Shown: positions 12,398-42,494, numbered from the stretch's first letter. The stretch is DNA of 50,212 nt from Escherichia coli (GCF_003334315.1 NZ_QOWR01000032.1); one strand, 5' to 3'. Notes: generated from the sequence alone by a model not told the origin. A program made the numbers and translations.

Positions 12398-12979
12398 TTA
12401 TGCAGCGAGATTTTTCGCTACGAATTCCCAGTTCACCAGCGCCCAGAAGTGCTCCAGATAGCCAGGACGTGCATTGCGATAGTCGATGTAATAAGCGTGT
12501 TCCCAGACATCAACGGTCAGCAGCGGAGTCGCATCGGTGGTCAGCGGAGTACCCGCGTTAGAGGTTGAAACGATAGCCAGTTTGCCATCGCTGTTTTTCA
12601 CCAGCCAGGTCCAGCCAGAACCAAAGTTTTTGATCGCTGCATCAGTAAACTGCGCTTTGAAATCGGCAAAGCTGCCAAAAGATGCGGCGATAGCTTCAGC
12701 GACTTTTCCAGTCGGTTCGCCACCGGCGTTCGGTGCCAGGCAGTTCCAGTAGAAAGTATGGTTCCAGACCTGAGCTGCGTTGTTGAATACGCCACCTTCA
12801 GAGCTGCGAATAATCTCTTCCAGTGATTTACCTTCAAACGCGGTACCTTTAATCAGGTTGTTCAGGTTAGTGACATAAGTCTGATGGTGCTTGCCGTAGT
12901 GATACTCGATGGTTTCCGCAGAAATGTGCGGTGCCAGAGCATCTTTAGCATATGGTAGTGCAGGTAATTCGAATGACAT
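12398..12979 (-). CDS. sodB: Superoxide dismutase [Fe] (193 aa)
   Basis: ORF 193 aa [46 protein letters not shown]...; canonical Fe/Mn-SOD sequence. Confidence 0.95.
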
Positions 12980-13106
12980 TGCTACTCTCCTTTATTATTA
13001 ATTTGCATACGTACAATAGCCTTATTGTGCGTATGGATAGGGTAGCAAATTAAAAGGTGAGACAAAAGATGAACTTACCCTGTTGCCGTAACAACAGGGT
13101 AAAGTT

Positions 13107-13922
13107 TTAGCGAAGTGTTTTTGGGGTCATTACCCGACGAGCGCCAACATAGTGGCGCTGCCAGTAGTCTTCACTGAGAGAAGTGATTTGAATTTCCTGA
13201 CCTGTGCGCGGTGACTGAATAAATTTGCCGTTGCCGACATACACGCCGACATGATCGGCTGTGCCGCGTCCCTGAGTACGGAAAAAGACCAGGTCGCCGT
13301 TTTTCAGTTCACTACGTTCGATTGGCGCTGCATCACGCAGGTGATACATTTCATTCGCCGTACGCGGAATACGAATTTTCACCAAATCTTTATAAGCGTA
13401 ATAAACCAGGCCGCTGCAATCAAAACCGGTACGCGGTGAGCTGCCACCCCAACGATATGGCTTACCAATTTGCTGCATCAGTTTATTCATTGCCACTTTC
13501 GTAGCTTTTTGCACCTTCGCTTTGTGCGCGTCGGCAAGAGTTCCTGACGCGGCATTTTTGACTTTCACACAATGCGATTTATAGCCCTTACGTTTGGTAC
13601 ACTTTTCGGTAAAGCTGGCTGAGGCCGTTTTATTGACGGCGTGTTTGCTGCGAGTTTTGGCGTTTTTAGAAGCGGTAATGGAAGATTTTTTAACGGAAGA
13701 AGCGGTTTTGCTTTTGGTCGTACTTTTACTGGCGGCTTTTTTCGCTGTTTTCTGGGTCTTTTTGGTGGTTGCCGTGCTTTTCTTTTTATCTGCTTTTTTG
13801 GTGATATGAGTGGTAGCAGAACTCTCCCTGGCTTGCTTTGAAGCATGGGCCATAGGCGTTAAAGGCAGGGTGGTAAAAAGTAAAGCACAGAGCGTGATCG
13901 AAATACGGTTTATCCGCGCCAC
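13107..13922 (-). CDS. mepH: MepH (YdhO) NlpC/P60 peptidoglycan DD-endopeptidase (271 aa)
   Basis: ORF 271 aa with signal peptide, Lys/Ser/Thr-rich low-complexity linker, and C-terminal NlpC/P60 domain (RWGGSSPRTGFDCSGLVYYAY...GDLVFF...HVGVYVGNGKFIQSP). Confidence 0.88.
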   Translation of the reverse strand: MARINRISITLCALLFTTLPLTPMAHASKQARESSATTHITKKADKKKSTATTKKTQKTAKKAASKSTTKSKTASSVKKSSITASKNAKTRSKHAVNKTASASFTEKCTKRKGYKSHCVKVKNAASGTLADAHKAKVQKATKVAMNKLMQQIGKPYRWGGSSPRTGFDCSGLVYYAYKDLVKIRIPRTANEMYHLRDAAPIERSELKNGDLVFFRTQGRGTADHVGVYVGNGKFIQSPRTGQEIQITSLSEDYWQRHYVGARRVMTPKTLR

Positions 13923-14255
13923 TGAGCGTCCCTCTGTTAAGGCAGGTCTATCATGCCTGCGTCTGATTTACAAAACTTGATGATTCTAATGCATAGAAGA
14001 AGAGAAAGTTAATAGCTTTTATTGTTAAAAAATACGTTTCGTTGGCGAGCGCAAAAAAATGCAGCAGTGAAAGCTAAAAATGGTTATAAATACGCCAGTT
14101 TGCCGGCATCAGAGAAGAAACGAATATTTGAAATGCAACAAATAGAGCAAAGGGATAAAATAGCAAAAGCGTGATGAAAATGTTATTTTCCGATGCCGCA
14201 CTGACCCGCTACAATGTCAGATTACTGCCGTAAAGAAGTTTGAGGAAGCAAGACA

Positions 14256-39215: not shown

Positions 39216-41342
39216 TTAGTCCTCGTTTACAACCTTCTGCTGGGCGGCTTTTTTGGCCTGAGCGCGGGCAATAGCCGCGGCAACTGCCGCTTTGCGCGGA
39301 TCAACCTGTTCTTCTGGTACCGCATTAGCCTGTTGCTGTTCCAGCTTGCGTGCTTTGGCGCGTGCAATAGCCGCTTCGACGGCAGCTTTGCGCGGATCAA
39401 CCTGTTCTTCTGGCTCCGCATTAGCCGGTTGCTGTTCCCGTTTGCGCGCTTTGGCTCGGGCAATAGCGGCTTCGACGGCGGCTTTGCGCGGATCGACCTG
39501 TTGTTCTGGCTCGGCATTAGCCTGTTGCTGTTCCAGCTTGCGTGCTTTGGCACGGGCAATAGCGGCTTCGACGGCGGCTTTGCGCGGATCGACCTGTTCT
39601 TCTGGTTCCGCATTAGCCTGTTGCTGTTCCAGCTTGCGCGCTTTGGCGCGGGCGATAGCTGCTTCAACGGCAGTTTTACGTGGATCAGCAACGGTTGCTG
39701 CGTCGTTAGTTTGCTGCAGTTCTGCCTGTTTCGCTCTGGCTTGCGCTTTACGGGCTTCCCGTGCTGCAATAATTGCACTGTTATCCGGGCGTTCGCCCGC
39801 TTTAATCACAATAGGCTGTGTAGCCTGGGCCTGTTTCTCTTTCACCCGCGCCAGAGCGGCAGCAATCGCATCTTTATCTTTGGCTGCAGGTTGAACGGCT
39901 GCGCTCTTATGTCGTTCAAGGCGAGCCGCTTTTTCGCGCTCCAGACGAGCCTGGCGCGCTTCGAAACGCGCTTTGGCTTCTGCGGCGCGCTTTTCTTCCT
40001 GACGAATAGCCGCAATTTCAGCTTTTTCCTGACGGAAATATTGCACCAGGGGAATATTGCTCGGGCAAACCCACGCGCAAGCCCCACATTCAATGCAATC
40101 AGCAATGTTATGCGTGGTAGCTTTATCGTGTTGCTGACCTTTGCTGAACCAGTACAACTGTTGCGGCAAAAGATCCGCAGGGCAGGCGTCAGCACAGGCG
40201 CTACACCGGATGCAGCTTTGTTCTTCCTGTGGTTCGCCAAGTTCATTGGCAGAGGGAGCCAACAGACAGTTGGTAATCTTTACGACCGGGACATCCAGCC
40301 ATGGCAAGGTAAAGCCCATTAGCGGGCCACCCATAATCACCATTTGATCGGCAGAGGGGCAGAATCCGGCATCATTCAATAAATGACGCACTGGCGTCCC
40401 CAGCCGTGCCCAGACGTTGCCCGGGCGAGCGATTGCTTCGCCAGTCAGGGTTACAACACGCTCGGTAATCGGCTCGCCATCAATAACGGCACGTTTCACT
40501 GCATAAGCAGTGCCGACGTTTTGCATTAATACGCCGATATCGGATGAACGCCCGCCATGTGGAACCTGCTTCCCGGTCAGAATGTAGGTTAATTGTTTAG
40601 CACCGCCAGAAGGATATTTGGTTGGAATCACCCGCAGAGAAATATCGTTAGAGTCCGCCAGCACCGCGCGCAGCATGGAAATCGCCTGCGGTTTGTTATC
40701 TTCAATGCCGATAAGAATTTCGCGTGGCTGCAGAATATGCGCAAGAATGCGAATACCCTCTACGACCTGAGCCGCGCAATCCTGCATCAAACGGTCATCG
40801 GCGGTAATGTACGGCTCGCACTCAGCCGCGTTGATAATCAACGTTTCAATCTTATCTCCGCCACCCTGCAATTTAACGCCTGTCGGGAATCCTGCACCGC
40901 CCAGCCCGGCAACACCAAACTGATGTATGCGCTCGATTAACTCTTCGCGACTGCGAGTGCGATAATCGGCCCAGCCGTCGCGCGGGATCCAGCAGTCTTC
41001 ACCATCGGCATCAATAATCACGCTTAATTCAGCTAAAGCTGAAGGATGAGCCGTAGAGTGGGGCGCAATAGCCGTAACGGTACCCGAGGTGGGCGCGTGA
41101 ACAGGCAGCATTTTGCCGCGACCACGGGTAAGCGGCTGGCCGCGCAATACTTTATCGCCGACGCTAACGCACAACTCACCTTCAGCGCCAATATGCTGTT
41201 TCAGTGGAATAACAAAACGCTGCGCCAGGGGTACCTGGCGCAGGGGTGTACCGTTGGACTGGGTTTTCATCTCCGGTGGATGGATGCCGCCGTTGAAATC
41301 CCAGATTTTATTTTTTCTGAATGCAGAGAATAACTTAAGCAT
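39216..41342 (-). CDS. rsxC: RsxC (RnfC) subunit with 4Fe-4S ferredoxin motifs and C-terminal tandem repeats (708 aa)
   Basis: ORF 708 aa [34 protein letters not shown]...; two CxxCxxCxxxCP motifs; C-terminus built from 32-aa repeats [32 protein letters not shown]. Confidence 0.92.
39219..39683. repeat. In-frame 96-bp tandem repeat array within rsxC (4 near-identical units plus a degenerate terminal unit)
   Basis: The DNA shows 96-bp periodicity (…GCGCGGATCAACCTGTTCTTCTGG…GCATTAGCCTGTTGCTGTTCCAGCTTGCG…) encoding 32-aa Ala/Lys/Glu-rich units. Confidence 0.85.
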
Positions 41343-41913
41343 GGTGTTCCACGGGAATGATACGCACGGGAATGGTGTTCAGATCCCATTTCCAGGAGTC
41401 AGGTGTTTCTGCGACCGGTTGCAACGAGATGCAGTGCGTCGGGCACGGATCAACACATAAATTGCAGCCCGTACAGAGATCACTCATTACCGTATGCATG
41501 GCACGGGTAGCGCCAACGATGGCGTCTACCGGACACGCCTGAATACATTTAGTGCAGCCAATACAGTTATTTTCATCAATAACCGCCACCATCCGCGCAG
41601 GCGTTATCTCTTGCGCTTCGCCATCCAGCGGCTGCGGCTCGACATTAAGCAACTCGGCAATTTTTAGCATCACAGCTTCGCCACCTGGGGCGCAACGGTT
41701 GATTTTTTCACCGTTACAGCTGATGGCTTCCGCGTAGGGGCGACAGCCGGGATAACCGCACTGACCACACTGGCTCTGCGGTAAGATTTCGTCAATTTTC
41801 TCAACGACCGGATCGTCTTCCACCGCAAAACGGCGGGAGGCATAACCCAGAATGGCGCCAAACGCCAGGCCCAGCAGGCTCACGGCGGCAACGGCAATCC
41901 AGATAGCATTCAT
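41335..41913 (-). CDS. rsxB: RsxB (RnfB) iron-sulfur subunit (192 aa)
   Basis: ORF 192 aa [60 protein letters not shown]...; multiple Cys clusters. Confidence 0.92.
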
Positions 41914-42494
41914 TACAACTTCACCAAACCACTAAAGCCCATAAAGGCCAGAGACATAAGACCTGCGGTAATTAACGCAATGGCATTACCGCGAAAAGGT
42001 GCCGGGACATCAGCCACAGCAAGGCGTTCGCGGATGGCGGCGAAGAGCACCATCACCAGCGAGAAACCGACAGCGGCGGAAAAACCGTACAGCGCCGACT
42101 GCAAGAAATTGTGCCCGAGATTGATATTCAGCAACGCCACGCCGAGCACTGCACAGTTGGTGGTGATAAGCGGCAAAAAAATCCCCAGCAGACGGTAAAG
42201 CACCGGGCTGGTTTTGCGCACCACCATCTCGGTGAACTGCACGACCACAGCAATCACCAGAATAAATGCCAGGGTGCGCAGGTAAATCAGATTAAGTGGG
42301 ATCAAAATCCACGTATCGATAAGCCAGGCGCAAATAGACGCCAGCGTCATCACAAACGTTGTTGCCAGCCCCATGCCCATCGCGGTTTCCAGTTTTTTGG
42401 AAACCCCCATAAACGGACAGAGACCGAGAAACTTGACCAGTACAAAGTTATTGACCAGTACAGTTCCGACAAACAGTAACAGGTAGTCAGTCAT
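41913..42494 (-). CDS. rsxA: RsxA (RnfA) membrane subunit (193 aa)
   Basis: ORF 193 aa [48 protein letters not shown]... Confidence 0.92.

Follow-up and report, generated by a model that had tools for sequence, protein, structure and literature searches.

Two operons of Escherichia coli are among the closest described systems for the locus analyzed here, a stretch of 50,212 nucleotides of E. coli DNA (GCF_003334315.1, NZ_QOWR01000032.1; hereafter the window, to which all positions refer) in which 15 redox and electrophile-defence genes lie between positions 12398 and 42494 (the interval). The SoxR-reducing complex encoded by one of them, rsxABCDGE-nth, is said to have been described by Koo et al. 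in EMBO J in 2003, and separate operons kept together as uber-operons or conserved synteny blocks were reportedly treated by Lathe, Snel and Bork in 2000. rsxABCDGE-nth has been described as one operon (PMC2907692; PMC11729352). The other operon, nemR-nemA-gloA, is repressed by NemR, read-through into gloA has been demonstrated, and the order nemRA-gloA was called conserved among gamma-proteobacteria (Ozyamak et al. 2013, PMC3739934). A literature search revealed no paper which treats the redox genes of the interval as a cluster. We conclude, with a probability of about 0.78, that gene-order history together with some chance, and not a shared control mechanism, best explains why seven redox units are grouped here.

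Gene content and transcription units of the interval

The window is E. coli chromosome and the interval a piece of core Enterobacterales chromosome, corresponding to the stretch from sodB to rsxA near 37 min in K-12. Between positions 454 and 42765, identity to E. coli NZ_CP104618.1 is 99.98%, and the coding sequences (CDS) annotated in that genome agree in coordinates with the open reading frames (ORFs) of the window. All 5426 complete E. coli genomes contain a match to the segment 12398-32398 (sodB to tyrS), several of them at 100% identity (including NZ_CP104618.1, over 20 kb), and in 4379 of them the coverage in one place is ≥80%. GC content is 0.52 in the interval as compared to a mean of 0.51 for the whole window, and sub-blocks range from 0.47 to 0.57.

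The original prediction, which was made from sequence alone, had named 15 redox genes, and all of them were found to be present by annotation match to window ORFs. Proteins were identified using NCBIfam models with curated cut-offs. Scores were far above these cut-offs for SodB, GrxD, GloA, NemA, SodC, GstA, Nth, and the six Rsx subunits; NemR matched related TetR models and YdhF matched aldo/keto-reductase models, all below cut-off. The genes had furthermore been described as interleaved with few unrelated ones, which is incorrect. Of 31 annotated CDS in the interval, 16 have no redox or electrophile role (mepH, a small hypothetical gene, lhr, rnt, ydhL, ydhK, ydhJ, ydhI, slyA, slyB, anmK, mliC, pdxH, tyrS, pdxY, and dtpA), and the 15 named genes occupy 11,358 of 30,097 bp (38%), the unrelated share of bases being 62%.

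The 15 genes collapse into seven units located on both strands, namely sodB, grxD, nemR-nemA-gloA, ydhF, sodC, gstA, and rsxABCDGE-nth. Together with the unrelated runs between them, they are arranged as follows:

12284-12270 and 12198-12173: terminator-like hairpins downstream of sodB
12398-12979, minus strand: sodB, Fe superoxide dismutase (NF007832, 434 bits; annotation); own unit
14256-14603, plus strand: grxD, monothiol glutaredoxin 4, Fe-S cluster trafficking (NF008086, 257 bits); own unit, on the strand opposite to its neighbours
14617-14646: terminator-like hairpin after grxD
14654-20010, minus strand: unrelated lhr (4.6-kb helicase gene) and rnt (RNase T), between grxD and gloA (annotation)
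20113-22334, minus strand: nemR-nemA-gloA operon (NF007899, NF007629), encoding a TetR-family repressor, N-ethylmaleimide reductase, and glyoxalase I
20113-20520, minus strand: gloA
20601-21698, minus strand: nemA
21735-22334, minus strand: nemR
22725-23621, plus strand: ydhF, annotated as aldo/keto reductase (AKR; sub-cut-off AKR matches only), downstream of ydhL (DUF1289) on the same strand
23702-24223, plus strand: sodC, periplasmic Cu,Zn superoxide dismutase (NF007628, 363 bits)
24224-33331: unrelated 9-kb run between both halves, with the ydhKJI efflux system, slyA, slyB, anmK, mliC, pdxH, tyrS, and pdxY (annotation)
33375-33980, minus strand: gstA, glutathione transferase (NF007831, 405 bits); own unit
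36199-42494, minus strand: rsxABCDGE-nth operon, SoxR-reducing Rnf-type complex and endonuclease III (NCBIfam equivalogs for all seven proteins)
36199-36834, minus strand: nth
36834-42494, minus strand: rsxEGDCBA

Gene identity and unit structure are direct observations. Terminator-like hairpins were found 3' of sodB, mepH, grxD, gloA, slyA, tyrS, and dtpA. The nemA/gloA junction is free of any terminator-like site, and a strong hairpin is located 3' of gloA at 20104-20082. gstA is located between pdxY, which is convergent to it, and dtpA, which has its own terminator-like hairpin (34064-34038); the rsx genes and nth overlap or abut, with a promoter-like site at 42551-42523. Extending over two strands and containing internal terminator-like hairpins, the interval is not a single operon; only nemR-nemA-gloA and rsxABCDGE-nth have the organization of one.

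Three further features of these genes and their surroundings were observed. In the C-terminal part of rsxC, at 39262-39687, a 96-bp unit is repeated 4.4 times in tandem and in frame (88% matches), outside the match to the RsxC family model (residues 12-570). According to the RefSeq annotation, ydhL (22437-22676) encodes a small DUF1289 protein, which was matched by no NCBIfam model. ydgK (DUF2569; 42571-43035) is an intact ORF of 154 aa in the window and is split by IS1A in NZ_CP104618.1 (L001 42571-43788).

Gene order in Enterobacterales and other lineages

Gene order was compared in 80 GloA-anchored loci of up to 20 kb each, taken from species-representative genomes, to which 40 window proteins were mapped by tblastn. 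The set comprises 34 Burkholderiales loci and 41 Enterobacterales loci, 32 of the latter being full-length (13 from Enterobacteriaceae and 19 from other families). A backbone with the order cfa-punCR-purR-(ydhP)-sodB-mepH-grxD-rnt-gloA...slyA-slyB-anmK-mliC-pdxH-tyrS-pdxY-gstA-(dtpA)-nth-rsx was recovered in seven families, Enterobacteriaceae, Erwiniaceae, Yersiniaceae, Pectobacteriaceae, Hafniaceae, Morganellaceae, and Budviciaceae. The same genes thus occur in the same order whatever their function, as in a conserved core-genome synteny block, and this pattern was observed directly; it includes the genes of the run 24224-33331, whose order is kept across Enterobacterales. All 32 full-length Enterobacterales loci keep rnt, and 31 of them keep grxD.

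Retention was counted within ≤10 kb of gloA in the 19 full-length Enterobacterales loci from outside the Enterobacteriaceae. Both rnt and grxD were kept in 19 of 19 loci, ydhL and purR in 18 each, and slyA and cfa in 16 each; nemA was kept in 11, sodB in nine, ydhF in seven, and sodC in three. Of the redox genes, nemRA, ydhF, sodC, and sodB show lower retention than their unrelated neighbours. The greater persistence of related operons that is characteristic of an uber-operon was not found, with grxD as the exception, being a redox gene that is fully kept, and nth-gloA as the one deep link. With regard to conservation of the clustering across Enterobacterales, which had been proposed as a test, the grouping is kept in close relatives, but it is kept as part of general synteny, and within it retention is lower for the redox genes. 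None of the neighbours that gloA has in the window was kept around gloA in the 34 Burkholderiales loci.

The deep link was found outside the order. In three Aeromonas species and one gammaproteobacterial metagenome-assembled genome (MAG), rsxABCDGE-nth-gloA is contiguous and co-oriented with a nth-gloA spacer of 18-92 nt (Aeromonas schubertii, L082 3266-10405; others L079, L085, L088). nth and gloA are 11 nt apart in Thalassolituus, where a ydhL-like domain, 42% identical, also lies 1.6 kb from gloA. The distance from nth to gloA is 15.7 kb in E. coli. A compact intermediate exists in Budvicia, where the whole of rsxGE-nth-gstA-[pdxY tyrS pdxH mliC anmK slyA sodC ydhL]-gloA-rnt-grxD-sodB takes up 12.6 kb. 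In Aeromonas, the rnf-nth operon may end with gloA, and the contiguous arrangement suggests an old array that was later split by insertions. A literature search, in which the Vibrio query was swamped by 'NTHi' matches, returned no description of a contiguous rnf-nth-gloA.

The gap between slyA and gloA is bimodal with a length of either 0.8-1.5 kb or 4.8-8.7 kb. The short form occurs in Pectobacterium, Brenneria, Photorhabdus, Xenorhabdus, Edwardsiella, and Budvicia; the long gap holds ydhIJK and nemRA, to which sodC and ydhF may be added. Intermediate states were found as well, namely nemA with ydhIJK only in Rosenbergiella, sodC only in Budvicia, and a slot without ydhF and sodC in Erwinia; therefore, units were gained or lost one at a time. 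Of the 41 Enterobacterales loci, only that of E. albertii shares with E. coli an lhr gene (14654-19270, minus strand, 1538 aa) between rnt and grxD; the GC content of lhr is 0.57 as compared to the window mean of 0.51.

The slyA-gloA slot was also considered as a hot-spot for accretion of detoxification genes. In Enterobacter, Yersinia, and Serratia, however, the slot also contains a gene for an EptA-type lipid A phosphoethanolamine transferase, and in Serratia there are additional genes for a LysR regulator, an SDR, and a histidine phosphatase; since it takes up unrelated genes, the slot is not redox-specific. The EptA-type gene is located between ydhL and nemR in Enterobacter cloacae (L025 6377-8134), Yersinia aldovae (L046 6304-7755), and Serratia silvae (L042 6075-7715), and the encoded proteins pass the cut-off of the EptA equivalog but none of the MCR cut-offs. 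In E. coli, this position is empty.

These observations suggest a stepwise history. A co-oriented rnf(rsx)ABCDGE-nth-gloA array would be old and still contiguous in Aeromonas, and we infer that it was split in Enterobacterales by the housekeeping block consisting of gstA, pdxY-tyrS-pdxH, mliC, anmK, and slyBA. An order-wide syntenic block would be formed by gloA-rnt-grxD-mepH-sodB. The variable slot between slyA and gloA would then have gained ydhIJK, sodC, ydhF, and nemRA in some families, nemRA becoming functionally coupled to gloA through read-through, and lhr would have been added in Escherichia. Lineage-specific insertions may in this way have stretched the nth-gloA distance to its present length in E. 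coli. Co-location itself would presumably lack selective value, and the 30-kb cluster would represent an inherited neighbourhood plus few additions.

Regulation, density, and alternative explanations

The original prediction had suggested co-regulation or a shared chromosomal domain as a possible reason for the grouping. If the interval were one regulon or one co-regulated domain, a single regulator or a domain-wide signal would switch on the whole of it under oxidative or electrophile stress. Regulatory assignments were taken from the literature, and they show that subsets do share control. The sodB and grxD mRNAs are both targets of RyhB (PMC8544716; PMC11327457), nemR-nemA-gloA is controlled by NemR, and SodC, GstA, and YdhF are up together in a cysB mutant (PMC6761508). 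However, the last three rise jointly with KatE, OsmC, YfcG, YghU, GstB, and MsrA, and these partners are mostly unlinked and encoded at sites scattered round the chromosome (e.g., katE, osmC, yfcG, gstB); we read this rise as an RpoS-type response. The effect of RpoS is opposite for two units, since sodC is stimulated by RpoS (PMC4393010), whereas expression of rsxABCDGE-nth, treated as one operon, is raised in an rpoS mutant (PMC2907692). RNA polymerase was mapped after methylglyoxal treatment by chromatin immunoprecipitation on microarrays (ChIP-chip; PMC3739934). In the accessible part of that source, the peak listed in the interval covers nemR/nemA, and in one list ydhL too; sodB, ydhD/grxD, ydhF, sodC, and gst are not mentioned in the accessible text and supplementary tables on this experiment.

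According to the literature, the widest reach of a regulator is three of the seven units, and neither SoxRS, OxyR, NemR, Fur-RyhB nor RpoS governs all members. No regulator is documented in the literature for all seven units, a search for binding sites not being part of the analysis. A scan with Rfam revealed no shared regulatory RNA in the interval, and nothing usable on iModulon membership of the genes was obtained from the literature search. The units are under at least four separate and partly opposite trans-acting controls, and they are distributed over two strands with terminator-like hairpins between them. Each unit has its own trans-acting regulator; therefore, proximity is not needed for control. 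The explanation by one regulon or one co-regulated domain is thus already contradicted, and we regard it as highly improbable.

The density of redox genes had also been thought to be higher than expected by chance. A category was set before sampling, which comprised scavengers of reactive oxygen species, proteins of thiol redox, those of electrophile detoxification (with all aldo/keto reductases counted), oxidative base-excision repair, and the dedicated regulators of these functions. In a blind sample of 20 systematically spaced 50-kb blocks of NZ_CP104618.1 (1.0 Mb, 21.6% of the genome), 16 category genes in 15 units were found, and hence about 70 units are estimated genome-wide (Poisson 95% range 39-115); about 150 units result when every borderline gene is counted. 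A scan simulation was carried out with N units placed uniformly at random, where P is the probability that some segment of 30.1 kb contains ≥7 units:

N = 70 (point estimate): P = 5e-4
N = 115 (upper sampling bound): P = 0.01
N = 150: P = 0.05
N = 200: P = 0.25

With rsx-nth and gloA merged as one historical unit (six units), P = 0.005-0.28 was obtained. A second cluster was met in the blind sample, comprising ygiN-mdaB, yqhD-dkgA, yqhC, gpr, and yghU, plus yghA, gss, and ygiC. This mdaB-yqhD-gpr-yghU block of five units has P = 0.02 under the Poisson model, and the class of redox and electrophile genes is therefore overdispersed. When a negative-binomial null was fitted to the 20 blind blocks, 0.03-0.34 segments of such density were expected per genome. 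Furthermore, the category was shaped by the gene list of the finding itself, so that the statistical excess hinges on a category drawn after the fact, and P covers one theme among many that a reader could pick. The claim of a higher density thus holds only nominally, against the uniform null, with P rising to 0.05-0.25 for broader categories. The excess over uniform placement is nominal and fragile, depending on the breadth of the category and on the null model, and we lean towards regarding the enrichment as unremarkable.

Two more stress genes were observed near the window. The stress-responsive Fe-S assembly operon sufABCDSE is located outside the window, about 23 kb beyond sodB (NZ_CP104618.1 2123458-2128970; L011 38356-43868), and the peroxidase gene btuE lies beyond sufABCDSE, about 58 kb from sodB; therefore, a larger frame would make the apparent cluster look bigger.

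Several points weigh against an explanation by gene-order history and chance. The genome-wide unit count is extrapolated from a 21.6% sample of one annotated genome with genes classified by eye, and seven units in 30.1 kb are nominally significant under uniform placement at both N = 70 and N = 115. Four classical antioxidant or thiol units lie within 21.6 kb (P ~0.009 at N = 30), and two of the three superoxide dismutase genes lie within 11.8 kb (P = 0.015). Three of the four slot units in E. coli, namely nemRA, ydhF, and sodC, have redox or electrophile functions; this slot content and the nth-gloA adjacency in distant lineages would be compatible with some functional attraction. In an alternative explanation, a supra-operonic, uber-operon-like neighbourhood would have been selected, in which co-location itself is favoured and new defence genes are preferentially kept on landing there, with co-inheritance, shared local supercoiling, dosage near the terminus, or one chromosomal interaction domain as possible benefits. 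The nominal density excess, the entry of all three redox units into one slot beside gloA, the recurrence of nth-gloA adjacency in Aeromonas, the MAG, and Thalassolituus, and the clumpiness of this gene class in the five-unit block elsewhere are in line with this proposal. However, the redox genes are less retained than their unrelated neighbours in Enterobacterales, the slot also takes the EptA-type transferase and other unrelated genes, regulation of the units differs and is partly opposite, 9 kb of housekeeping genes and a 4.6-kb helicase gene lie inside the interval, and gloA neighbours are kept in 0 of 34 Burkholderiales loci. Selection for such a neighbourhood therefore appears rather unlikely. 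Slightly less probable still is a variant in which an ancestral gammaproteobacterial rnfABCDGE-nth-gloA served as a seed, around which gstA, sodC, ydhF, nemRA, and grxD-sodB were preferentially retained in Enterobacterales as a weakly selected 'defence neighbourhood'. If this were true, E. coli may have several such neighbourhoods, including the mdaB-yqhD-gpr-yghU region, which would be of modest interest.

A horizontally acquired stress island was considered as well, in which case the interval, or at least the segment from slyA to gloA, would have arrived as one mobile block. The slyA-gloA segment is indeed present in some and absent from other Enterobacterales families, and IS1 sequences are found at either end of the window. 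Positions 1-453 are located inside an IS1 copy that interrupts ydhS and is 99.6% identical to IS1A of NZ_CP104618.1, and a 75-bp IS1-like terminus (90.7%) at 50137-50211 directly follows malI; the 49.7 kb between them are therefore bracketed by IS1. However, these copies are at a great distance from the interval and vary from strain to strain. Neither an integrase nor a tRNA gene nor direct repeats were found at the ends of the interval. The universal presence of 12398-32398 in complete E. coli genomes, the GC content of the sub-blocks around the window mean, and the intermediate states in Rosenbergiella, Budvicia, and Erwinia, which show that units came and went singly, speak against a genomic island, and we consider an island the least probable of all explanations.

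Two RNA features were detected with Rfam outside the interval. The sRNA STnc550 (396 bits) at 10441-10831 overlaps the small cydH gene, and HPnc0260 at 1568-1849 is located antisense to a tandem tRNA-Val gene pair.

Comparison with described systems

An apparent thematic cluster read from raw sequence dissolves here into separately regulated units within an ordinary synteny block. All components are already known as characterized or annotated E. coli genes, both multi-gene units are published operons, and no new element, mechanism, or system was found.

The unit at 20113-22334 corresponds to the nemRA-gloA read-through operon of E. coli (Ozyamak et al. 2013, PMC3739934) in its genes, their order, the terminator-free nemA-gloA junction, and the hairpin after gloA, but this operon accounts for only three of the 15 named genes. 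Unlike the conservation claimed in PMC3739934, gloA occurs without adjacent nemRA in Pectobacterium, Brenneria, Photorhabdus, Xenorhabdus, Edwardsiella, Budvicia, Arsenophonus, and Aeromonas. The incomplete conservation of nemRA-gloA within Enterobacterales is of possible interest for comparative genomics. Likewise, the window contains the described rsxABCDGE-nth operon with all seven genes on one strand, overlapping or abutting. In Aeromonas and a related MAG, this array runs straight into gloA, from which it is separated by 15.7 kb in E. coli. The Aeromonas arrangement may be of similar interest, since it suggests how nth and gloA became 16 kb apart in E. coli.

Within E. coli, the mdaB-ygiN/yqhD-dkgA/yqhC/yghA/gpr/yghU/gss neighbourhood (NZ_CP104618.1, 709-745 kb) resembles the interval in that separately regulated electrophile, quinone, and thiol genes are located close to each other. 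It contains four units by a strict or six by a loose definition within 30 kb, and five to eight within 36 kb; by the strict definition, it is less dense than the interval (four vs. seven units per 30 kb). This region was sampled as block L005 (NZ_CP104618.1, 695035-745034), and yghA is a pseudogene in that strain. Finally, the interval resembles an uber-operon in that separate operons have kept their neighbourhood across a bacterial order. The difference is that in uber-operons related operons remain neighbours through rearrangements, whereas here the related genes are less stable and unrelated neighbours are kept at least equally well.

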